DNA from: a virus
IMG/VR virus record: IMGVR_UViG_3300025574_000001
Coordinates: 7,328-71,327 of that record
DNA length: 64,000 nt
Strand: one strand, 5' to 3'
The notes under the pieces are model-generated. The model was given only the letters and a program-made list of their open reading frames with translations. It was not told the origin of the DNA and did not search any database. Within the stretch, counting starts at the first letter, position 1. Every line of letters begins with the position of its first letter. Positions 6,436 through 33,481 of this stretch are shown here, one piece after another. Made by a program: the position numbers and the translations under genes.

Positions 6436-7347
6436 ATGACAACGACAACAAGCAAAGGCTATCAATACCCAACGATTGTTGGTGGGTCTTCTACTGATAC
6501 CGTCACTTCATATCCTCCTAGTGCAGCAGCGAACGCACTCTTACATGAAGCACGTCCGGGAGTATCATCTGTCACAACCACTGTGCGTAATGCGTACACA
6601 GGCATTGACCTCTGGGATGGTCGCATCATCTGGAACACCACCACGTTGCGATTGGAAAAATACGACCTAGGAACCACATCTTGGATTCCTGCAGCGGCGG
6701 GTGCGTCACCAGCCACAACGGTTGCCGGTCCTGCAGCGTTTGGTGATGCAACGATTCTTGGCACATCACTGCTCTATGCGCGTCAAGATCACAACCACGG
6801 ACTCCCCGCAACGACAGGACTTGCAACGACTGCCGCATTAACGACTGAGACAACACGCGCTACAACGGCAGAGACTGCGGTTAATGTTGCTGTGGGTAAT
6901 GAAGCAACGACACGTGCAATAGCGGATGCACTCTTACTTCCGAAATTGAATGGCATCCTAACATCTGCGTTTGAGTCTGTGTATGTCACTGGTTCTGCAC
7001 CCACATATGGGGGTGAGATTGACATCACGACTAACAGTTCGCTTCTTTTCTTTACCGCGGCTGCATCGACTAATTTCTTACCTAATTTTAGAAGTACACC
7101 TACCGTTACGTTGAATGCACTTATGGCAGTAAATACATCAATCACTGTCACAATGTTGGTGACGCAGGGTGCCACTCCTTATTTCTGTTCAACTTGCGAT
7201 ATTGACGGCGCTTCACAAACAGTTCACTGGCAAGGTGGCATTGCACCAACCGCCGGATTTGCGTCTGGCATTGATGCATACACATTCACAATCATCAAAA
7301 CCGCCAGCGCGACATTCACAGTCCTAGCGAGCCTCACACAGTTCTAA
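6436..7347 (+). CDS. Tail fibre-associated protein
   Basis: Contains YARQDHNHGLP and the C-terminal VHWQGGIAPT..GIDAYTFTIIKT..FTVLASLTQF motif seen at phage fibre ends. Confidence 0.65.
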   Translation: MTTTTSKGYQYPTIVGGSSTDTVTSYPPSAAANALLHEARPGVSSVTTTVRNAYTGIDLWDGRIIWNTTTLRLEKYDLGTTSWIPAAAGASPATTVAGPAAFGDATILGTSLLYARQDHNHGLPATTGLATTAALTTETTRATTAETAVNVAVGNEATTRAIADALLLPKLNGILTSAFESVYVTGSAPTYGGEIDITTNSSLLFFTAAASTNFLPNFRSTPTVTLNALMAVNTSITVTMLVTQGATPYFCSTCDIDGASQTVHWQGGIAPTAGFASGIDAYTFTIIKTASATFTVLASLTQF

Positions 7348-10044: not shown

Positions 10045-10500
10045 ATGCTTTTAAAAAAACGACTACATCAAGACGCTGACAAACTTCTTATTGGACCAAA
10101 GAGAACATTTCAGCGCATCATCGTTCATTCACTTATTGATTTGGAATACATTACATCATTAACTTGTGCATGGGAGTCGTGTGTACTCCCGGGTGTTCCG
10201 CTAGCAGCAAGTGGAAGAACACTAGATGGTTTTACAATTGATCATATCATCGCAATAAATGATGGTGGCACTGACCGACCAGAAAACATACAACTTCTAC
10301 ATCACACTTGCAATATGCGCAAAGGTGCAATCTTCACTGAAGAACGTCGAGCAAAGATTGCAGAGAAGACAAAACTTAGATGGAATGACCCGGCATATAG
10401 AAATGCAATGGCCACTCGAACACGATCACAAGAAGAACATGAACATCGAGTTGCAGGAGCACAACGCGGTGATGATCATTGGAAAAGAAGGAGTGCCTAA
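10045..10500 (+). CDS. HNH endonuclease with NUMOD3-like tail
   Basis: TIDHIIAINDGGTDRPENIQLLHHTCN, followed by EERRAKIAE. Confidence 0.85.
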   Translation: MLLKKRLHQDADKLLIGPKRTFQRIIVHSLIDLEYITSLTCAWESCVLPGVPLAASGRTLDGFTIDHIIAINDGGTDRPENIQLLHHTCNMRKGAIFTEERRAKIAEKTKLRWNDPAYRNAMATRTRSQEEHEHRVAGAQRGDDHWKRRSA

Positions 10501-11021
10501 TGTTGGTGATCTTAGAAGGGCCGGATGGGGCCGGGAAAACTACTCTCGCACAAAAGATTGCGTTCAGTGTTCACGGTGTCACTGACATTCGGCATTGTAG
10601 TCAACTAAGACGTAACCCTATGGCTGAGTATGTCGAGGACTTACACATGTACGTTCCCGGCACCGGGATGAATATCGTTTACGACCGTCACTACTTAGGT
10701 GAACTTACCTATGGACCTTTGTACCGTGGCATATCACAAGTCAGCCCAAGTATTAAGACAGCGATTGAGTACCGATTAAACAAACTTGGTGCGCTTCTTG
10801 TTCATGTGACACACGATCTTCCAACGCTAATTGAACGATGTAAGGATAAGGGCGAAGATTTTTTGCAAGAAGGTGACATTTACTTTGTGCGTCAACAATT
10901 CATTGAAGAAGTTGCGGAGTCGGGAATTAGATTCAAGGCGGCTGTGACAGATGCAACAGGTCAAGACATCCTTGATATCATCTGGCTTGCACAAGAACTG
11001 GAAAAGAGAGTGAGTGAATGA
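10500..11021 (+). CDS. Thymidylate-kinase-like dNMP kinase
   Basis: ILEGPDGAGKTT P-loop and the YDRHYLGELTYGPLYR motif. Confidence 0.85.
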   Translation: MLVILEGPDGAGKTTLAQKIAFSVHGVTDIRHCSQLRRNPMAEYVEDLHMYVPGTGMNIVYDRHYLGELTYGPLYRGISQVSPSIKTAIEYRLNKLGALLVHVTHDLPTLIERCKDKGEDFLQEGDIYFVRQQFIEEVAESGIRFKAAVTDATGQDILDIIWLAQELEKRVSE

Positions 11022-11890
11022 TCGTAATCCCTAACATGCCTATTGGTTATCGCACAGTCATTGAACATGTCATTGCACGCGGGCGTCCTGTTAGTCCTCG
11101 AGGAATGCCAACGTTGGAAGTTCCTGATGTTGTTGTGCGTCTTGACAATCCGTTCTTTGCTCTTGCACTCGGTTCAACACGGAAGATCAATCTGGCGATT
11201 GCGGCAGCGGAGACTGTGCAACTTATCGGTGGGTTTCTTGACCCACAACTTTTGACCAGTGTCTCTAAGAACTTTGAACAGTTCATGGATGATGGCACCT
11301 TTCACGGTGGTTATGGCGAACGCATCGGAGATCAGATGTTGCGTGCCGCACAAAAGTTAGTGACGGATCACAGCACGCGACAAGCCGTGATTCAACTCTG
11401 GGACAAGGACAAGGATAATGAAAGCGGATATCACGATTATCCTTGCACTCTTTCACTCGTCTTTCAAGTTCGTGATGATAAGTTAGAACTTCATACCACG
11501 ATGCGTTCAAACGACGTGTGGCTTGGGTTTCCTTATGACGTGTTTCAATTCACCCAGTTGCAAATCACGATGGCACGTGTCTTGGGCTTTGGCATTGGTC
11601 CTTACTATCATCATGCTGTAAGTCTGCATCTCTATGATCGAAATCGTTTTGATGCGGAACACTTGCGCATGGTGCCAGTGACACTCATAGATAACCGTCC
11701 ACTGGGTTTCGGCAATGTACACACTGACCGAAGTATGAATATCTTTGGTGTATTACAAAGAGCCAAAGATATTGGGACAGGTAATAAAAGTGAGGTCACA
11801 AAGCGTTCACCATCAGAAGAGTGGTACGTGAAGCAGTTGGCACCACACGTTGCACCACACACAAAAGACAAAGGGACGAGAAACAAATGA
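11018..11890 (+). CDS. Thymidylate synthase-fold enzyme, probable dCMP hydroxymethylase/hydroxylase
   Basis: DYPC (Cys143) and MRSNDVWLGFPYD. Asp174 sits at the position of E. coli ThyA Asn177 and T4 gp42 Asp179. Confidence 0.8.
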   Translation: MIVIPNMPIGYRTVIEHVIARGRPVSPRGMPTLEVPDVVVRLDNPFFALALGSTRKINLAIAAAETVQLIGGFLDPQLLTSVSKNFEQFMDDGTFHGGYGERIGDQMLRAAQKLVTDHSTRQAVIQLWDKDKDNESGYHDYPCTLSLVFQVRDDKLELHTTMRSNDVWLGFPYDVFQFTQLQITMARVLGFGIGPYYHHAVSLHLYDRNRFDAEHLRMVPVTLIDNRPLGFGNVHTDRSMNIFGVLQRAKDIGTGNKSEVTKRSPSEEWYVKQLAPHVAPHTKDKGTRNK

Positions 11891-12378
11891 CGGCAATAGG
11901 ACGACGACAGAGTTGGGACAGGACGTGGATGGCCATGGCGTTTGTGATGGCACTTCGGTCAGATTGTACACGCTCACAAATAGGTGCAGTGATTGTGAAT
12001 GATAAGAATCGAATCATCGCCACCGGATATAACGGTCCACCCGCGGTAAGTCCTGTCGATTACACATGTCATCTCTCATGTCCCAGGGCGAATGGTGATG
12101 TAGGAGATCAGTACGGGTTCACTTGCATTAGCATTCATGCCGAGGCCAACGCGCTTCTCTTCTGTGATCGGTCAACGATTGAAGGTGGTTCACTCTATGT
12201 GAACGCTGTGCCGTGTCCCGACTGCGCGAAGTTGATTGCGAACAGCGGACTCACGCACGTGTACTTTGTCGATGATGGGAAACCAAATCGAATCCCACAC
12301 ACGGTTACAGAATACTTAGACCAACACGGTGTCCTAATGCTAGAGATGCAGATGCGTGATGAGTTTGCAGAACGTTAA
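11887..12378 (+). CDS. dCMP deaminase
   Basis: IIATGYNGPP, HAEANAL and PCPDCAK Zn-binding motifs. Confidence 0.92.
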   Translation: MTAIGRRQSWDRTWMAMAFVMALRSDCTRSQIGAVIVNDKNRIIATGYNGPPAVSPVDYTCHLSCPRANGDVGDQYGFTCISIHAEANALLFCDRSTIEGGSLYVNAVPCPDCAKLIANSGLTHVYFVDDGKPNRIPHTVTEYLDQHGVLMLEMQMRDEFAER

Positions 12379-18968: not shown

Positions 18969-19826
18969 ATGATGGCAGAATTTGATTGGTCCACACTGAT
19001 GGAGCAAGCGGGTACATCGCTTGTGCCGATTCCAGATGGTGAGTATGAATTGCAGTGCAGTTCAGCGAAGCCAGGAACATCAAGTAACGGTAAGCAGACA
19101 TTCAATTGTCGATTCACCGTTGTGCAAGGACCGCACACATCACGACCCGTGTACAACACCTTCACGATTTCGCCGGAAAGTCCGCCAGCAATTGCGTTCT
19201 TCTTTCGACACATGAAGGCGTTTGGTTTGGACCTCGAATACTTTAAGAGGAACCCAACACCGGACCAAGTTGCGGATGCGTTGATTGGGAAGTTGGTTCA
19301 CGCAAAGATCGGTCACAAGACGTACCAAGGTGAAGTGCGAAACGAGTGCAATGGTTTTTCAGCATCACTGCTTGCACCCGGGAGTGTTCCTGTGACACCA
19401 ACACCAGCACCAGTTGGTGGTGGTCCAGTGACAGCACCACCGCCTCCTATCGCATCAGTTCCAACACCGGCAGTCCCGCCAGTCGCAGCCGCACCTGCAC
19501 CTATTGTTGCGCCTGCACCAGTTGCGGAGACGGTTGCACCGCCTCCTGCTGCTGTACGCACGTTCAATCCACCCGATGGTCAAGAGTGGAATGGGACAGC
19601 GTGGATATGGCCAGTGGAACGTGTCGCGGGTTGGAACTGGGATGTTGCTTCGCAGACTTGGGTAAACCCAGTTCCTGCGGCTGTGACGCCTCCACCACCG
19701 CCCGCACCACCTGCACCACCTGCACCACCCGCTGCACCCGCTGCACCAGCCGCACCGCTTGCACCTCCTGTTGCTGCCGCTCCCACGGCTGCGACAGTTC
19801 CTGGTGCACCTTCAGTTCCGTTTTAA
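18969..19826 (+). CDS. DUF669-like ssDNA-binding protein with Pro/Ala tail
   Basis: IPDGEYELQC...GPHTSRPVYNTF OB-like region, then a long Pro/Ala linker and C-terminal PF. Confidence 0.8.
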   Translation: MMAEFDWSTLMEQAGTSLVPIPDGEYELQCSSAKPGTSSNGKQTFNCRFTVVQGPHTSRPVYNTFTISPESPPAIAFFFRHMKAFGLDLEYFKRNPTPDQVADALIGKLVHAKIGHKTYQGEVRNECNGFSASLLAPGSVPVTPTPAPVGGGPVTAPPPPIASVPTPAVPPVAAAPAPIVAPAPVAETVAPPPAAVRTFNPPDGQEWNGTAWIWPVERVAGWNWDVASQTWVNPVPAAVTPPPPPAPPAPPAPPAAPAAPAAPLAPPVAAAPTAATVPGAPSVPF

Positions 19827-19832
19827 GGAAGG

Positions 19833-21146
19833 ATGACGATGGGTAAGAGAATCGGATACGCGAAGTTAGGGCGTTCAATGCCACTTGTTGCTAGTGAAGG
19901 CGACTTCAGTGATGATGAACCTGCACGTGTGTTACGTGATCTTGCCCATCGTCACCCGGAGGATGAATTCGTTATTCTTGGATTCAATTCATGTGATGAC
20001 AATGCAACAGCACGTATGCCCGACAACGTTGTGAACCCGTGGCATGATGGGTGGCGTGATTCATTGAAAGAATTAAGAACGGGTTGGAAGGCGCCACTAG
20101 GACCAGAGAATCAGATGAAGATACAAGATTGGGGTGACGCAAACATTCTCCCATGGTTTCGTTCGTGTGATGCTGTGATCATCTGGCTTGGACAACATGG
20201 GAACACGAATAGTTTTATCCCGCCAGCAAATGGGTTGTGGTCTGATGGTGCAGTTAAACTTCACGACGAATACCTTTCGTATGGAAGTTACTGTGTACGT
20301 GGTGTGAATGCATTTCGTCAAGCCGACCCACTCACACGTGAAGAAATTTATCTAGTCGCTGACGGACGTAATCATTTGAAAGCACGTGACACAAAGTGGC
20401 CACTTAAGCATCCGATTCAGGGACAATACATTTGGTCACGTAAGACGAAGTTTGAACGTTATGGCGATACACGATCACCCGAAGAGTGTGGGTTCCCAGA
20501 AGCAGAGTGGGACAACGATCACATATGGATGGCCGATGTGAAGTATGAATACACACGTCTTGAAATCTCAGGCATCCTTCCCTGGGAAGTTGACATTCGT
20601 TACTCTGAGGAATTTGATTCACGACGTCACTTTGGTCTTTTCATCAATGAGGCAAGAGCGTATGTTGGCGTGTCACGTCTTAAGGCGATGCAAGAGTACG
20701 TGTTACAACTAAACCCGGTGTTCATTCATGGAAAATGGGGTAAGGAATCATTAGCCGTTCTTGGCTTTGATATTCAGCAAGCGCCCGCAACGATTTACTA
20801 TGACATCTTACGTTCTGTGAAGTGTACGTTCTCAACACCTTCATCAGGTACGGGTTGGGCAACGACGAAACCGTGGCAAGGTTTCGGTTGCGGGACCGTG
20901 ACGTTCTTTCATCCGAAATACGACACACAAGACAACATCCTTGGTGATGCACCCAAGGAACTTCGCGATTGGCTTCGTGTCACATCACCTGAACAATTGA
21001 AAAAGCGCGTGGAACATCTTGACACTCACTATGACGATTGGCTTTGGATTATCCGCGAACAGAAAAAGCATTATGATACGGCAGTTGCAGAGATGAGACA
21101 CATCAAAAAAATTGAGGAGAGAATATATGGTAATGACAATGGATGA
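19833..21146 (+). CDS. T4 beta-glucosyltransferase-like DNA glycosyltransferase (GT-B)
   Basis: Motifs collinear with T4 BGT as recalled: YLVADGR vs YLFTDIR (catalytic Asp100), TTKPWQ..YDTQ vs TLRVWE..FDTK, and VTSPEQLKKRVEHL vs VNNRAELIDRVNEL. Confidence 0.75.
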   Translation: MTMGKRIGYAKLGRSMPLVASEGDFSDDEPARVLRDLAHRHPEDEFVILGFNSCDDNATARMPDNVVNPWHDGWRDSLKELRTGWKAPLGPENQMKIQDWGDANILPWFRSCDAVIIWLGQHGNTNSFIPPANGLWSDGAVKLHDEYLSYGSYCVRGVNAFRQADPLTREEIYLVADGRNHLKARDTKWPLKHPIQGQYIWSRKTKFERYGDTRSPEECGFPEAEWDNDHIWMADVKYEYTRLEISGILPWEVDIRYSEEFDSRRHFGLFINEARAYVGVSRLKAMQEYVLQLNPVFIHGKWGKESLAVLGFDIQQAPATIYYDILRSVKCTFSTPSSGTGWATTKPWQGFGCGTVTFFHPKYDTQDNILGDAPKELRDWLRVTSPEQLKKRVEHLDTHYDDWLWIIREQKKHYDTAVAEMRHIKKIEERIYGNDNG

Positions 21147-22218
21147 AACGACGACACACATCAAAGAACCACCGAAAAAATTGGACATAGCAATTGTGTC
21201 CACATCAATCAATGAAGCACCAGTGGCGTATGCGAAGTGGGCAAAGTTAGGACGCTTAATTATTGCGGGTGACAAGAACACACCACCTACACTTGAACAC
21301 TACATCAAATCCCTGGGTGAACAACACCAGTACATACCGCCGGCGCAACAAGATCGATGGGAATCGAGTGAAGTGATTGGGTGGCATAACATCCAACGTC
21401 GCAACATTGCAATCCTCGAGGCGATTAAGTCAGATGTTGATTACATCATCACAGTGGATGACGACAACATCCCACTTCAAAACATTGATCTTATACTCTC
21501 TGCATTTGAAAATTCTCACGCACTACACGTTAGTTCAGCACTAGGTTGGTACGACCCGTGTCGTGAACTTATCCCCGCTGTGTGGCATCGTGGATTCCCA
21601 TATTCTTTTCGCAATCAGCAAGGTAAGCAAGGAGTTGAGTCGCTTGAACGATATGACGTGATAAAAGTGCCAATAGGTGTTGTGGCGGCAACGTGGTTGG
21701 GTGAACCTGATGTTGGTGCAATTGACCGCATCACGAATCACGTACTTGTTCAAGGACATCACGCCACTCTGTTAGACCCGGGTGTTGTGCTACAACCAGG
21801 AACGTGGTGTCCGTTCAATTCGCAAGCAACAGCGTGGCGTGCAGAGTACGCTTCACTGATGATGTGCTGGCCTGGTGTTGGTCGATTCGATGACATCTTC
21901 GCAAGTTTTGCAGCGCGTCGAGTGTTGGATGAATTGGGTGTTGGTGTGAAGTATGTGCAACCACTTGTGCGTCAAGATCGCAATGAACACGATTCATTCG
22001 TTGACCTTGAGAATGAAATGTTTGGCTACAAACATCAAGATGAGTTGTGCGAACTTCTTCGTGCAGTTGACTTACGTGGTATAGATGACGTGCAAGATAT
22101 GCAACATCACGTCTATGATGCTCTTAGTGGCGCTAGATTTTTACCACATAGAACTATTGAATCATTTGAGTGTTGGATGAACGACGTTAAGACAGCGGAA
22201 AAGGAGCGTGCAGTATGA
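21127..22218 (+). CDS. GT75/RGP (UDP-arabinopyranose mutase)- or STELLO-like protein
   Basis: IITVDDDN, HRGFPYSFR, WLGEPDVGA, GTWCPFNSQ and GRFDDIFA match RGP IYTIDDDC, VRGYPFSLR, WLNIPDYDA and GRYDDMWA. Confidence 0.75.
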   Translation: MVMTMDETTTHIKEPPKKLDIAIVSTSINEAPVAYAKWAKLGRLIIAGDKNTPPTLEHYIKSLGEQHQYIPPAQQDRWESSEVIGWHNIQRRNIAILEAIKSDVDYIITVDDDNIPLQNIDLILSAFENSHALHVSSALGWYDPCRELIPAVWHRGFPYSFRNQQGKQGVESLERYDVIKVPIGVVAATWLGEPDVGAIDRITNHVLVQGHHATLLDPGVVLQPGTWCPFNSQATAWRAEYASLMMCWPGVGRFDDIFASFAARRVLDELGVGVKYVQPLVRQDRNEHDSFVDLENEMFGYKHQDELCELLRAVDLRGIDDVQDMQHHVYDALSGARFLPHRTIESFECWMNDVKTAEKERAV

Positions 22219-23183
22219 AGATAGCGGTTACGGGTGCAGGTGGATTCATTGGTGGTCACCTTGTCAATCAGTTGTTGAATGATGGACACCAAGTTTCGGC
22301 GTATGACATTAAGCCGTTAAGAGAATGGCAACAAGTTCGTGGCGATGCGCGTAATCATCCTCTTGTTGATGTTGGTATGAACAATGCTGATTTTGATTTT
22401 GAAGATATGGATGAAGTGTATCAACTTGCAGCCGACATGGGCGGGTTGGGATTCATTCAAAACAACAAAGCACGATGCATGCTATCGGTTCTTGCATCAA
22501 CGAACACATTGTTAAAAGCCAATGAAGCGGGTGTAGGTCGATTCTTTTACCCATCATCAGCGTGTGCGTACCCAGCGGGTGTGCAGACTGAAATTGATTC
22601 ACCGCCAATTAAAGAAAGCGACATATACCCGGCGATGCCAGAGGATGGGTACGGCTGGGAGAAGTTATTCAGTGAGCGAATGTGTAATCACTTCTATGAA
22701 GACTTCGGTCTTGAAACACGTGTGGCGCGATACCACAACACATACGGCCCATGGGGTGAATGGGAAGGTGGTCGTGACAAGGCTCCCGCGGCAATGTGTA
22801 GGAAAGTCGCAATCGCTAAGTTGTCAAAGAGTCATGAAGTTGAAGTATGGGGTGATGGAATGCAAACACGAACGTTCACATACATTGATGATTGTCTAAA
22901 AGGCACAGTGATGTTGACGCGAAGTGACGTGCATGAACCCGTGAACCTTGGTTCCGCGGAACTCATATCCATCAATGATCTGGCGAATCTCACTGCACTT
23001 ATTGCCGGCGTGAACATCCACATACGTCATATCCCCGGCGCGTTGGGCGTGCGAGGTCGATGCAGTGACAACACACTCATCAATAAGTTATTTGACTGGG
23101 AACCTAGCATTTCATTAAGTGAAGGAATGGAACGCACTTATGAATGGGTTTATAATCAGGTGAAGGCAAAATATTTCTCATGA
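22215..23183 (+). CDS. GDP-mannose 3,5-epimerase-like NAD-dependent epimerase
   Basis: VTGAGGFIG, QLAADMGGLGFI, SSACAYP, YGWEK and GGRDKAPAAMCRK, all GME-type motifs. Confidence 0.88.
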   Translation: MKIAVTGAGGFIGGHLVNQLLNDGHQVSAYDIKPLREWQQVRGDARNHPLVDVGMNNADFDFEDMDEVYQLAADMGGLGFIQNNKARCMLSVLASTNTLLKANEAGVGRFFYPSSACAYPAGVQTEIDSPPIKESDIYPAMPEDGYGWEKLFSERMCNHFYEDFGLETRVARYHNTYGPWGEWEGGRDKAPAAMCRKVAIAKLSKSHEVEVWGDGMQTRTFTYIDDCLKGTVMLTRSDVHEPVNLGSAELISINDLANLTALIAGVNIHIRHIPGALGVRGRCSDNTLINKLFDWEPSISLSEGMERTYEWVYNQVKAKYFS

Positions 23184-23548
23184 TAACTGGCAATTGTGTT
23201 AAGTGTGGCACATGGCGACAGTCACTTCATCGTGATCATATCATTGCAAAGTGCAATGGTGGAAGTGATGATCCCAGTAACATCCAGTTGTTGTGCGCGA
23301 ATTGTCATGAAGACAAAACACGTGAAGATTTAACAGGTCGAACAATAAGTGAAGAAACACGTGCCAAAATAAAAGGTCATCCTCATCGTGGTCCTAAACA
23401 TCATTCACCAGAAACACGTGCAAAAATAGGTGAAGCGCGAAAAGGACAAGTGTTCACGCCAGAGACACGGGCGAAGATGAGTACATCAGCAAAAGAATCA
23501 TCTAAACGCGGATGGGAAACACGACGAAGAAATGAGAGAAAAACATGA
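23180..23548 (+). CDS. HNH endonuclease with NUMOD3 repeats
   Basis: CVKC...HRDHIIAKCNGGSDDPSNIQLLCANCH, plus ETRAKI/ETRAKM repeats. Confidence 0.88.
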   Translation: MITGNCVKCGTWRQSLHRDHIIAKCNGGSDDPSNIQLLCANCHEDKTREDLTGRTISEETRAKIKGHPHRGPKHHSPETRAKIGEARKGQVFTPETRAKMSTSAKESSKRGWETRRRNERKT

Positions 23549-24021
23549 CATTCACACCACCCGAATCAGATGACTACACATTCAGTGAGTGGCTTGACTC
23601 CACAACTGAATTGCAAGTGGGCGCATACGGAATCAACCCGGGGAAATTGCAGGGTGAAGCGTTGAAAGGATGGTGTGCAATCAACGTTCTTGCAGCCACT
23701 GATGAACTTCACGAATTCTTACAGGAAGTGCCGTGGAAGCCGTGGGCATCAGGTATGCAAATCAATCGTGATGCAGCCATCAGTGAAATCGTTGACACCA
23801 TGCACTTCATCTCAAACTTGTTGGCGACATTCGACGTCACAGGTGAAGAACTTACACGTGTGTATAAGGCAAAGCAAATTCGCAACGCACAACGTCAAGC
23901 CGAAGGCTACACGGGATTGGACAAGTGTTCAGGTTGTCACCGCGACAAACAAGAAGTCGGCGGATGCATACATGAACAAGGTCCAATGACGTGCAATGGT
24001 TGTGGGACGGTGTGGCTGTGA
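23545..24021 (+). CDS. Dimeric dUTPase/dCTPase (T4 gp56-like, MazG superfamily)
   Basis: DELHEFLQEVPWKPW...EIVDTMHF...YKAKQIRNAQRQAEGY. Confidence 0.85.
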   Translation: MTFTPPESDDYTFSEWLDSTTELQVGAYGINPGKLQGEALKGWCAINVLAATDELHEFLQEVPWKPWASGMQINRDAAISEIVDTMHFISNLLATFDVTGEELTRVYKAKQIRNAQRQAEGYTGLDKCSGCHRDKQEVGGCIHEQGPMTCNGCGTVWL

Positions 24022-24398
24022 GTACGCGAACACATCAAAAAGTTTTTCTAACAAATAATGGTGATGGGCCGTGGCCTTGTCACTTTTGCAAAGAACTTGT
24101 GTATGGACCTATTCCAAATGGAAAAACAAAATATGTTGCTATTGTTCATCACATTGATGAAGATCGTTCTAACAATGACAAATTGAATCTTGTAGTGGCT
24201 CATCACAGTTGCCATTCTTCATATCACGCAACTCATCCACCAAATGATGTTACACAAAGTGACCAAGCCAAACGAGGTTGGAAGACACGAAAACTTCAAG
24301 GAAATAATCTTGCTAATGCATACTGCACAACACGTGGTATGAAACGCAGCAACGCAACAAGTAAGGGTTGGATAACGCGAAAGAGGAATGCATTATGA
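24018..24398 (+). CDS. HNH endonuclease
   Basis: GPWPCHFC...VHHIDEDRSNNDKLNL..AHHSCHSSYH. GTG start overlaps the upstream stop. Confidence 0.8.
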   Translation: MSTRTHQKVFLTNNGDGPWPCHFCKELVYGPIPNGKTKYVAIVHHIDEDRSNNDKLNLVVAHHSCHSSYHATHPPNDVTQSDQAKRGWKTRKLQGNNLANAYCTTRGMKRSNATSKGWITRKRNAL

Positions 24399-25609
24399 CA
24401 AAGTCAACTCACACAGCCATTGATGTACAAGGTTTCGCTGGCGGGTTCACACTGGGAATGGTGCAGGCAGGTTTCACACTTGTTTCAAAATGCGAAATGA
24501 AGGGTGCATTCGGTGCAGCCAACTGTGAAGCGAATCGTCATCTTCTTGGCAACAAGTGGGATCTTCAAGTTGGGCCACAGGAGAGTTGGGAAAACCGAGG
24601 TGCTGAAGTTCAGTTTGGCAATCCTCCGTGTAGTGCGTTCAGTCCTCTTAGCGCGAAATCGTTTCGTGGTATGAACAGTCCTATCGCCCACTGTATGTGG
24701 GCAGAAAGTCAGTACGCCGCACGTGCAATGCCATATGTGATGATCTTTGAGTCTGTGCAACAGGCTTACAATCAAGGTCTCCCGATGATGCGCGATATTC
24801 GCACGTGGCTTGAACACGAATCAAAAACGAAGTGGGAACTGTATCACGTCCTTCATAACAATGCCGGCCTAGGTGGTGCGTCAATTCGTAAGCGATATTT
24901 CTATGTGGTGTCGCGTATCCCATTTGGTGTTGATGAACCACACATCACACGTGTGCCAGTTCTTAAGGATGTGTTAGGTGATCTAATGGGACTGGGTCAG
25001 ACGTGGGAAGCCCAAGCCTATCGACGTCAACCATCGTGGTGGGCAAAGCCAATGCGTTCAAAGTTGAATGTTGTGGATGGTCACATCGGTCGCAACAACG
25101 CAGTGGATGTGTTGCGTGTATTGCAACTTCTTGACGCTGTGCCGTGGGGTGAAGGTGAAGTTGTTGGGCAAGTCGCGAAAAGGTACTATGAACAGTACGG
25201 CGAACTTCCTGATCTCTGGACCAACACGCAGAAGTGGGTGGACAAGGATTGGCAGATGGGATTTCACCAACCCATCAAAATGAAATGGGACAAGATGGCG
25301 CGAGTGATCACAGGCGCAGTGTTGCATAAGAACATTCACCCACGGGAGAATCGGTTTCTTACACATCGCGAGGCTGCACGAATTCAAGGGTTTCCTGATG
25401 ACTGGAACATTCGCCCGTTGCGTGGCGTGAGTGGATTAAGCGCAACGTGGGGCAAGGGTATCCCAGTGCAAGCGGGCAAGTGGATTGGAACAGCGATTAA
25501 GAATGCACTTGACGACAACCCGCAGGAATATCAAGGTGAATTGATTGGAGAGAGGGAACACGTCATCGACTGGACTAACACATATCGAAAATTCACGACT
25601 GAACGGTAG
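24395..25609 (+). CDS. C5-cytosine methyltransferase-fold protein (divergent)
   Basis: GNPPCSAFS (motif IV), FESV (VI), SIRKR (VIII) and REAARIQGFPD (IX). Motif I DVQGFAGG and motif X WGKGIP are non-canonical. Confidence 0.8.
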   Translation: MTKSTHTAIDVQGFAGGFTLGMVQAGFTLVSKCEMKGAFGAANCEANRHLLGNKWDLQVGPQESWENRGAEVQFGNPPCSAFSPLSAKSFRGMNSPIAHCMWAESQYAARAMPYVMIFESVQQAYNQGLPMMRDIRTWLEHESKTKWELYHVLHNNAGLGGASIRKRYFYVVSRIPFGVDEPHITRVPVLKDVLGDLMGLGQTWEAQAYRRQPSWWAKPMRSKLNVVDGHIGRNNAVDVLRVLQLLDAVPWGEGEVVGQVAKRYYEQYGELPDLWTNTQKWVDKDWQMGFHQPIKMKWDKMARVITGAVLHKNIHPRENRFLTHREAARIQGFPDDWNIRPLRGVSGLSATWGKGIPVQAGKWIGTAIKNALDDNPQEYQGELIGEREHVIDWTNTYRKFTTER

Positions 25610-31909: not shown

Positions 31910-32184
31910 CTAAGTCCATCTCTCTCCCTCTTCATTAGTTCGATGCAGCCCGCGTACCCAGCGATGTCAATGAGTGAATCACGTTGACCGCCACCATTGT
32001 TGTACCGGGCAATCTTCACACCAATCATACACAGTGCAACTTGTTCAGGTGTGACGTCGACACCAAGGATAGGACTCCACAATCCCGCAATAGTTGTGAA
32101 TGATTGTAGTGGTGTGCCATAGTCTTGTTGACGTTCGCCATTGATGATTTCATCGGCTTCACGTAATACTGACTTTTCACTCAT
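31906..32184 (-). CDS. DUF6378-like protein
   Basis: LREADEIINGERQQDYGTP..SFTTIAGLWS...VALCMIGVKIAR...DSLIDIAGYA. Confidence 0.8.
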   Translation of the reverse strand: MSEKSVLREADEIINGERQQDYGTPLQSFTTIAGLWSPILGVDVTPEQVALCMIGVKIARYNNGGGQRDSLIDIAGYAGCIELMKRERDGLS

Positions 32185-33005
32185 GGGCGTTCCTTGTCAT
32201 GGCGTAGTTGGTGCCACCCGGTGAAGTTGGCGTGGTTGTGATGCTCATATGAATTGTTGTAATCACAAGCGAATGCCTGGTGCTCAAGTGGTGATGCGTG
32301 CATCGGGTTTGCGTTTGTGAGTTGCTCATAAAGGCGCGCATCAGCATCAAAGTCTTTAACGTCACCGGCGTGTAGTGATGACACACGCGCACAACGCGCC
32401 ACACTCATGATTTGGCATTCGCCCAGTGAACGGGTGCGTGATTCTTCTTCAGTGACATAAGGCAAATGCCAGTACCGAAGTTGCGGCGTGCTCTCATCCA
32501 TTGCTTGCTTCATCAGCACCGCCGCTGCACGAATCTCTGGTTGTGCCATTGGTGAACAACGCAAGCCAAAGAAGTTATCCCATTCAGTCGATGTGACCAC
32601 AATGGTGTGCCACATGAATGGTTCAAGATAGCGGTTAAGAACTGATTTGTGAAGACGGTGTTCAGGATCAGGATGACGGTTGAGATAGATGATAATTGAA
32701 TCAGTCGTATCCACAAGAATGTCACGAATAAGATCCTGTGCGTCACTCAAGTCTTGACCTTCCAGTTCACTGCCACCTTGCATACCCTTTTGTTCGCGTG
32801 GATGTGAGATAGGTAGTGCGGGTGATTCATCGATTCTGTCCAGTTGCTTTTGAATCGGAATGGCGCGTGAGGACGCAGAGTTCCTGGAGAAAACACGGTG
32901 CGTGTTGAATTCAGCCAACACGAATCGGTGAAGTGTCACTTCCATCGTTGTGATTCGTGCACCCGTGTAGATTGAATCTTCAATGATCTTGGCTTCTGTG
33001 TTCAT
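32181..33005 (-). CDS. thyX: FAD-dependent thymidylate synthase (ThyX-like)
   Basis: AEFNTHRVFSRNSASSRAIP (ThyX motif variant), RYLEPFMW, SVARCARVS and HASPLEH. Confidence 0.85.
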   Translation of the reverse strand: MNTEAKIIEDSIYTGARITTMEVTLHRFVLAEFNTHRVFSRNSASSRAIPIQKQLDRIDESPALPISHPREQKGMQGGSELEGQDLSDAQDLIRDILVDTTDSIIIYLNRHPDPEHRLHKSVLNRYLEPFMWHTIVVTSTEWDNFFGLRCSPMAQPEIRAAAVLMKQAMDESTPQLRYWHLPYVTEEESRTRSLGECQIMSVARCARVSSLHAGDVKDFDADARLYEQLTNANPMHASPLEHQAFACDYNNSYEHHNHANFTGWHQLRHDKERP

Positions 33006-33481
33006 GGCAGTACCACGTGTTCGCACTTATCACAACAACCGTCCTCACCCAGTCGTCTTTGTTCCATACACAAGTCAAGGATCGTATGACACGCGACACA
33101 TGAACTTGTTCGATTCTCTTCCACAACACGCGCTTCATATTCCTTCCACGCAATCACAGCCGCTTTGAACAACACATTCGTTTCAAAGAGGTTGCCAATG
33201 TCGGCACCTTCGAGATGTGTGAACACTTCAACCATGTGTTTGATTTGTTGCGCCTGCACGTCAGGGCGTGTGTATTCACTGAAGACCTTTAACGCATCAA
33301 TGAACACACTGTCAATCTGTTCTTGCAAGGCAAGAGTGGCGTGTGTTTGTGCCATGATGCTAAGTGCTACTGCATCCCAGTGATTATCTTCATCACGTGA
33401 AAAAACCAAATCATCCGCAGTTCTCAATAATCGTGCTGCTTCATGCACGTGAATCGCTACTGCATCTATTTCGTCACTCAT
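33002..33481 (-). CDS. Hypothetical protein
   Basis: 159 aa, coupled ORF, with C-terminal CxxC...CCDKC. Confidence 0.55.
   Translation of the reverse strand: MSDEIDAVAIHVHEAARLLRTADDLVFSRDEDNHWDAVALSIMAQTHATLALQEQIDSVFIDALKVFSEYTRPDVQAQQIKHMVEVFTHLEGADIGNLFETNVLFKAAVIAWKEYEARVVEENRTSSCVACHTILDLCMEQRRLGEDGCCDKCEHVVLP

Follow-up and report, generated by a model that had tools for sequence, protein, structure and literature searches.

The 64,000-nucleotide stretch of viral DNA analysed here (positions 7,328 to 71,327 of IMG/VR virus record IMGVR_UViG_3300025574_000001; hereafter the window) carries at positions 24,395 to 25,609 a gene for a protein of 404 amino acids (aa). This protein belongs to a clade that combines the known fold and catalytic core of the C5-cytosine DNA methyltransferases with a different pocket for the cofactor S-adenosylmethionine (AdoMet) and a different pathway role. 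The function favoured for it, with a probability of roughly 45%, would be AdoMet-independent covalent chemistry at the C5-methylene unit of 5-hydroxymethylcytosine (5hmC) or at residual cytosine.

The open reading frame lies on the given strand and begins with ATG; a TTG at 24,368 is an alternative start, and the 404-aa form is favoured over it by homologues and public gene calls. The protein passes the threshold of the Pfam family of C-5 cytosine DNA methylases (PF00145; E 4.4e-17, 62.9 bits, cut-off 22) and stays far below that of the NCBIfam dcm family (TIGR00675; 33.7 bits, cut-off 100.65). By sequence, its closest solved structure is M.HaeIII (E 1e-10). An AlphaFold2 (AF2) model built from 58 homologues reached a mean predicted local distance difference test score (pLDDT) of 93.2, and in Foldseek its top matches in the Protein Data Bank (PDB) were DNMT1, MET1, 3g7u (the prophage CP-933R enzyme), HaeIII and HhaI, with E of about 1e-18. 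The product is thus predicted by the model to have the class I C5-cytosine methyltransferase fold together with a target-recognition domain, and the fold claimed in an earlier note on this DNA is borne out by PF00145, M.HaeIII and AF2/Foldseek alike.

The conserved motifs were read directly and by alignment to HaeIII (Table 1). The catalytic Pro-Cys (Pro78-Cys79), Glu119, Arg165/Arg167 and motif IX are present, and they are invariant across the family. By contrast, the AdoMet motifs FxGxGG (motif I) and GN(A/S)V (motif X) are not matched, the protein having QGFAGG and GKGI instead. The earlier note had listed PPC, ESV and RxR as kept and these same two motifs as altered, and both readings agree with the alignment. 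Further changes not on its list are the replacement by Ser of the Gln that follows PPC, the loss of the Gln of QxRxR, and a motif III Asp that is not conserved in the family.

The changed residues were set against enzymes with published cofactor contacts, so that the statements on the pocket made here rest on sequence alignment. In M.HhaI, Gln82 of motif IV and Asn304 of motif X adjoin the transferable group (PMC3526304; PMC12783734); the Q82A substitution lowers methylation about 16-fold, and both Q82A and N304A make room for larger groups in the pocket (PMC3526304). CmoX, a natural phage enzyme that cannot use AdoMet, carries Arg350 in place of HhaI Asn304, and this residue contacts the carboxymethyl group of carboxy-S-adenosylmethionine (carboxy-SAM); an engineered M.MpeI with the substitution N374K also uses carboxy-SAM (PMC12783734). 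In the protein of the window, the three positions that surround the transferred methyl have become Ser80, Ser120 and Lys354, which would give a roomier and cationic space over C5. Given these precedents at the Gln82 and Asn304 positions, the clade appears to be built for a larger or anionic moiety over C5. The adenosine side of the pocket is affected as well: the positions equivalent to the adenosine-binding residues of CmoX (Phe25, Glu47, Phe48 and Asp69; PMC12783734) are replaced or variable among 150 representatives of the clade. The contacts to the methyl donor thus seem to be largely lost, and AdoMet binding may have gone with them.

Conservation of these changes was assessed in two sets of relatives. 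A word-indexed protein search returned 1080 proteins at E < 1e-5, and the best 120, all at least 50% identical, have FAGG, NPPCS, ESV, RxRYF and WGKGI in common. HMMER, run exhaustively over 1.84 billion cluster representatives, returned 165 clusters at E < 1e-30, of which the best 150 representatives (33-51% identity) formed the distant set. Here, the motif X Asn position is Lys in 137 of about 145 (P0257, an apparent exception, proved to be an alignment slip that misplaced motif X and was corrected by eye), and ESV, PPCS, RxRYF and an Asn-Arg pair at positions 47-48 are nearly invariant. The Gly of motif I is always Phe, Leu or Tyr, and its Phe is replaced by Gln, His, Glu, Tyr or Met. The ribose-binding Glu of motif II is absent in about a quarter of the distant set, the position of the adenine-binding Asp of motif III is variable across it, and conservation of the target-recognition region is unusually high throughout the family. 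Since the motif changes are near-invariant both at 33-51% and at 50% identity or more, they are selected features rather than the outcome of chance or decay. The proposal that the AdoMet pocket is remodelled while the catalytic motifs remain intact therefore holds at the sequence level for the whole family, in 120 close relatives as well as in 150 distant ones. Among ESM Atlas clusters, the nearest are 98-100% viral, and the Lys-bearing clade is a large, phage-only family.

The second line of evidence is genomic linkage. Homologues at 37-40% identity are found in Micrococcus phage Kurnik, in Gordonia phages (GodonK, GMA2, Sixama and others) and in Actinomycetia phage DSL-LC01, with the same order at each locus: sugar transferases, then a MazG-like nucleoside triphosphate pyrophosphatase (NTPase), then the methylase-like gene. 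The comparison was extended to about 80 IMG/VR loci, 79 of which had enough upstream sequence for the NTPase to be counted; all 79 have a dUTPase_2/MazG-like gene on the same strand and upstream, mostly directly adjacent. The NTPase of the window has local similarity to T4 gp56 (E 1e-8) and a putative specificity for dCTP. Sugar-nucleotide genes change between relatives; the pair formed by the NTPase and the methylase-like gene stays.

The window also encodes a ThyA-fold enzyme, and exactly one ThyA homologue was present in each of the 35 longer viral genomes searched, as well as in all the isolated phages checked that carry a methylase-like homologue. Diagnostic residues that mark a dCMP (deoxycytidine monophosphate) hydroxymethylase within this fold were taken from PMC13326640. 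The enzyme has Asp at positions 143 and 177 of E. coli ThyA, Asn177 being the base-specificity position, and keeps Cys146 and Asp169; by these diagnostics it is predicted to be a dCMP hydroxymethylase, not a thymidylate, dUMP-hydroxymethyl or 5-hydroxy-dCMP synthase. Residues of the T4 gp42 type were found in all 30 homologues checked. A ThyX-type thymidylate synthase in the window supplies dTMP, leaving the ThyA-fold enzyme free for another role, and the presence of ThyX and a dCMP deaminase in addition to the hydroxymethylase indicates that dTMP supply is separate from cytosine modification, as in T4. The figures for ThyA (35 of 35) and for its gp42-type residues (30 of 30) make the clade an obligate component of a T4-like hydroxymethylcytosine pathway in a phage lineage of the actinophage type. 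Together with the NTPase count, this co-occurrence strongly supports the pathway link drawn in the earlier note. Two other routes to a modified cytosine were considered and rejected: identity of the ThyA homologue with a 5-hydroxycytosine synthase, because those enzymes carry Asn where Asp169 is kept, and a TET/JBP route from 5-methylcytosine (5mC) to 5hmC, because the complete 75-kb genome gave no match to PF12851.

Domain fusions provide a third line of evidence. About 10 of the 150 representatives carry a C-terminal canonical class I AdoMet-dependent methyltransferase domain (FkbM, Methyltransf_23 or FtsJ-like), in some cases with the VLDLGxxxG motif in its textbook form. One further representative is fused to the helical domain of 5-hydroxymethyldeoxyuridine (5-hmdU) DNA kinase (PF18723, E 5e-40), this fusion protein being devoid of the kinase P-loop, and two have winged-helix domains. 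The fused proteins keep all the clade signatures, and one of them sits after a dUTPase_2 gene, as stand-alone forms do. None of the fusion-partner domains was found in the 75-kb source genome. From these architectures, the methylase-like domain would seem to carry out one of several steps by which a hydroxymethyl-pyrimidine in DNA is modified, any AdoMet-dependent step being supplied by the separate canonical domain. In the 752-aa representative P0243, motif IV is interrupted, precisely between Pro-Pro and the catalytic Cys, by an intein that contains a LAGLIDADG endonuclease.

A pathway that would leave DNA substituted with 5hmC, and so without a free C5, together with the remodelled AdoMet site, is what favours AdoMet-independent covalent catalysis. 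The retained Cys79, Glu119, Arg165/Arg167, motif IX and target-recognition region would provide all that is needed for base flipping and addition to C6. A cytosine-type base would be flipped out and Cys79 would add to its C6; a C5 carbanion or exocyclic-methylene intermediate would then form without AdoMet and would allow the CH2-X group to be made, removed or exchanged on 5hmC or residual cytosine. For Lys354, the proposed role is acid/base catalysis or the binding of an anionic leaving group or donor. Going beyond the observed fold, motif pattern, conservation, genomic linkage and domain fusions, we infer the substrate (5hmC in DNA or residual cytosine), the donor or nucleophile, the product, the loss of AdoMet use and the reaction itself; the non-methyl chemistry on cytosine or 5hmC put forward in the earlier note is likewise a proposal. 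Chemistry of this kind is documented as a side reaction of ordinary C5-methylases deprived of cofactor (PMC7176277; PMC11347137): C5-methylases hydroxymethylate cytosine, engineered M.SssI couples thiols to 5hmC (PMC7176277), and M.MpeI forms covalent complexes with 5hmC DNA from which the hydroxymethyl group is apparently removed (PMC11347137). Engineered enzymes offer a close parallel, as M.HhaI Q82A/Y254S/N304A and eM.SssI are altered at the same motif IV Gln and motif X Asn positions as the clade and have lost methylation efficiency while gaining other C5 chemistry, including thiol coupling to 5hmC. They were made in the laboratory, have Ala at both positions and retain an intact AdoMet site, whereas the clade is natural, has Ser and Lys, and shows a remodelled adenosine site.

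Several points weigh against AdoMet-independent chemistry on 5hmC. Full replacement of cytosine by 5hmC in the virion DNA of the source phage is itself presumed, and part of the strict co-occurrence could stem from vertical inheritance in a single phage lineage whose replication module is conserved. The close partnership with a putative dCTP pyrophosphatase (dCTPase) is no less compatible with action on unmodified cytosine than with action on 5hmC. In the 404-aa protein, moreover, Glu34 (the ribose-binding position) and Asp56 are both present. Finally, carboxy-SAM or another AdoMet analogue as donor would fit Lys354, the most striking single change, because Lys at motif X makes M.MpeI use carboxy-SAM.

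This last point, which the earlier note does not raise, is the core of an alternative that we consider unlikely, in which an extended anionic alkyl group would be moved from carboxy-SAM, as by CmoX, or from another AdoMet analogue to unreplaced cytosines, Lys354 binding the carboxylate and Ser80 making room. CmoX is a phage DNA cytosine C5-carboxymethyltransferase (PDB 8YF3) that, like M.MpeI N374K, has a basic residue for the motif X Asn, and its Arg350 and the activity of the M.MpeI mutant (PMC12783734), the opening of the HhaI pocket by Q82A and N304A (PMC3526304) and the near-invariance of Lys354 in the clade all speak for such a donor. The two may also be alike in that CmoX is a phage enzyme installing a handle for hypermodification, which for the clade is a proposal. 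CmoX is defined by SPPC and an Arg at the HhaI Asn304 position (PMC12783734), where the clade protein has NPPC and Lys354, and it keeps the adenosine-binding Phe, Glu, Phe and Asp that in the clade are lost or variable. Sequence relatedness is marginal, the family profile matching 8YF3 with E 5e-4 over motif IX alone. CmoX usually lies beside CmoA and an amide ligase, 4257 CmoA genes accompanying 5615 CmoX genes (PMC12783734), whereas in the clade, which sits in a 5hmC pathway, CmoA (TIGR00740) was absent from the complete genome of the source phage and from 35 related ones (0 of 36, all of them phage genomes). In 5hmC DNA, besides, C5 is already occupied.

Public records annotate family members as methylases, and the protein could accordingly be an ordinary AdoMet-dependent enzyme forming 5mC on residual phage cytosine or on host DNA, with lineage-specific drift of its motifs. 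In favour of this are the score above the PF00145 threshold and the presence of Glu34 and Asp56, and with canonical enzymes (M.HaeIII, M.HhaI, 3g7u) the clade shares the fold, the Pro-Cys, the motif VI Glu, the motif VIII Arg-x-Arg, motif IX and the two-domain layout. It differs from them in having (Q/M/L)(G/A/S)FAGG for FxGxGG, PCS for PCQ, ESV for ENV and GK for GN, in adding its own invariant Asn47, Arg48, Trp55 and Trp65, and in the unconserved adenine-binding Asp. It also differs in being phage-only, in falling far under the dcm cut-off and in being accompanied, in every genome checked, by a dCMP-hydroxymethylase-type gene. Drift is made quite improbable by the fact that the changes in motifs I, IV, VI and X are invariant signatures at 33-100% identity, that equivalent changes cripple methyl transfer in other enzymes (16-fold in Q82A; CmoX with its Arg cannot use AdoMet), and that the domain is recurrently fused to a separate canonical AdoMet-binding domain.

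Cofactor-starved C5-methylases are reported to deaminate cytosine, and T4 carries functions aimed at cytosine-containing DNA. On this background, the protein might act as a weapon against cytosine-containing host DNA, its AdoMet-free attack leading to deamination to uracil or to protein-DNA adducts, with the dCTPase as the immunity of the phage. The obligate pairing with a dCTPase-type gene agrees with this, although nothing direct favours it; the fusions to O-methyltransferase-like and 5-hmdU-kinase helical domains point to stepwise base modification rather than damage, no nuclease or uracil-DNA-glycosylase-inhibitor logic is seen beside the methylase-like gene, and the weapon is regarded as very improbable. 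Least credible of all is that the protein acts on RNA or a free nucleotide instead of DNA, or that it merely flips bases as a DNA-binding protein. The unusual conservation of its target-recognition region could point to a single non-sequence substrate. Against this, Cys, Glu and Arg of the catalytic site do not vary in the family, motif IX and the DL motif that follows motif VIII can be aligned with DNA methylases (among them 3g7u over its full length and the target-recognition region of MET1), and some members add winged-helix DNA-binding domains.

The known pathways closest to that of the clade are those of T4 and of thymidine hypermodification. The T4 glucosyl-hydroxymethylcytosine pathway (gp56, gp42, gp1, Cd and the alpha- and beta-glucosyltransferases) shares its logic with the set in the window, which comprises the dCTPase-type NTPase, the ThyA homologue with the gp42 signature, a kinase, the dCMP deaminase and a putative DNA sugar transferase. 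It has no component with a C5-methylase fold, one that in the window and its relatives is obligatory and forms a pair with the NTPase. Thymidine hypermodification, by 5-hmdU DNA kinase and an amino-acid:DNA transferase, is a post-replicative exchange at a 5-hydroxymethyl pyrimidine, and the likeness to it is a proposal to which the fusion with the 5-hmdU-kinase helical domain provides a link; it differs in acting on a T-derived base through P-loop kinase and helix-hairpin-helix transferase folds. A more specific version of the favoured chemistry, which we regard as doubtful, is that the clade is a natural AdoMet-independent enzyme that, by way of the Cys-C6 adduct, puts another group in place of the hydroxyl of 5hmC or its activated form, in a cytosine hypermodification so far undescribed and widespread in actinophages. 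With just as little confidence, such a swap would be seen as the cytosine counterpart of the kinase/transferase route of thymidine hypermodification.

The source is a complete 75-kb phage genome with terminal repeats, and the window covers its replication and nucleotide-metabolism region (Table 1). In relatives, kinase genes adjoin the ThyA-like gene. The putative 437-aa sugar transferase gave no match in a tblastn search of phage records; homologues of it were present in 45 of the 60 loci that have 9 kb of upstream sequence, and the RGP-like protein in 31 of 81. Sugar cassettes (window positions 21,112-23,183; loci L005, L011 and L123), located between the genes of the putative DNA sugar transferase and the NTPase, contain an RGP-like protein and an epimerase in some relatives and an NTP_transferase, a SIS isomerase or an APH-like protein in others, and these differences between sugar-nucleotide genes suggest that different sugars are placed on the same base. 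In an 85%-identical relative, the NTPase gene overlaps the methylase-like gene with no HNH gene between them; both HNH genes of the window (23,180-23,548 and 23,991-24,398) therefore look like insertions, probably of homing endonucleases into the operon. The NTPase encoded at 23,545-24,021 ends in a Cys-rich C-terminal tail (CxxC ... CxxC) that is zinc-ribbon-like and unusual for its family. A 285-aa protein encoded at 18,969-19,826 has a conserved N-terminal domain, DUF669-like in relatives and probably binding single-stranded DNA, followed by a long Pro/Ala-rich C-terminal half.

Table 1. Genes of the window, motifs of the 404-aa protein (numbered by residue) and fused members of its clade.
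Feature	Position	Strand	Basis or remark
P-loop dNMP (deoxynucleoside monophosphate)/thymidylate-kinase-like protein	10479..11021	+	weak match
ThyA-fold enzyme with T4 gp42 (dCMP hydroxymethylase) signature	11018..11890	+	alignment to T4 gp42 and SP10 dUMP hydroxymethylase
dCMP deaminase	11821..12378	+	
437-aa protein, putative DNA glycosyltransferase	19833..21146	+	no Pfam family; conserved about 3.4 kb upstream of the methylase-like gene
RGP/STELLO-like glycosyltransferase- or mutase-like protein, sugar cassette	21112..22218	+	varies among relatives
NAD-dependent sugar-nucleotide epimerase/dehydratase, variable sugar cassette	22215..23183	+	
HNH-NUMOD3 homing-type endonuclease gene	23180..23548	+	absent in relatives
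dUTPase_2/MazG-type all-alpha NTP pyrophosphatase (putative dCTPase, gp56-like)	23545..24021	+	Pfam PF08761
HNH endonuclease gene between NTPase and methylase-like gene	23991..24398	+	Pfam HNH_3
C5-cytosine-methyltransferase-fold protein, 404 aa	24395..25609	+	Pfam, HaeIII alignment, AF2/Foldseek, family alignments
ThyX-type thymidylate synthase	32181..33026	-	
Other products: PolA, SNF2 helicase, PD-(D/E)XK nuclease, AAA_24 protein; farther on, primase-polymerase			
Motif I	Q12-G-F-A-G-G17		HaeIII FSGAGG
Motif II	Glu34		kept (ribose-binding position)
Motif III	D56		Asp present in the 404-aa protein
Motif IV	N76-P-P-C79-S80		HaeIII GPPCQ; Gln after PPC replaced by Ser
Motif VI	E119-S-V		Glu of ENV kept
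Motif VIII	S163-I-R-K-R167		HaeIII QDRKR; Gln of QxRxR lost, R165/R167 kept
Motif IX			kept; RE-AR-QGFPD present
Motif X	G353-K-G-I356		canonical GNAV
Fused members P0173, P0183, P0198, P0158, P0169, P0139, P0232, P0258, P0260, P0149, P0257	locus L124, 1071..4061		

The composition of the window itself shows one anomaly, the tetramer AGCT, which does not occur in positions 1-64,000, where trinucleotide frequencies predict about 79 occurrences. In a relative of similar GC content whose methylase-like protein is 75% identical (L123, 1-20,986), 4 are present against 36 expected, and high-GC relatives with the same conserved recognition region have AGCT at normal frequency. Such depletion is hard to explain if, as expected, the phage carries modified cytosine. 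As a clue to the specificity of the enzyme it is unsupported, being shared only by the low-GC close relative and not by the high-GC ones.

A search of the literature on the function of the clade, or on modified DNA in GodonK, Kurnik, GMA2 and DSL-LC01, found no account of the clade and nothing on its function, and a nucleotide search of a phage collection with 18 kb of the window gave no match. Several carriers, among them Gordonia phages GodonK and GMA2 and also Micrococcus phage Kurnik, are available in culture, which makes the function of the clade directly testable. Should the protein be an ordinary methylase after all, it would redefine the motif I and motif X residues that AdoMet binding tolerates. 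If it performs non-methyl chemistry, it would be the first natural enzyme with the mechanism of a C5-methylase minus AdoMet, a reaction so far known only as a laboratory side activity and exploited for 5hmC mapping, and it might provide a tool for the selective derivatisation of 5hmC. For the phages themselves, it would represent a new step, and possibly a new base, in the hypermodification of DNA in a large group of actinobacterial phages.

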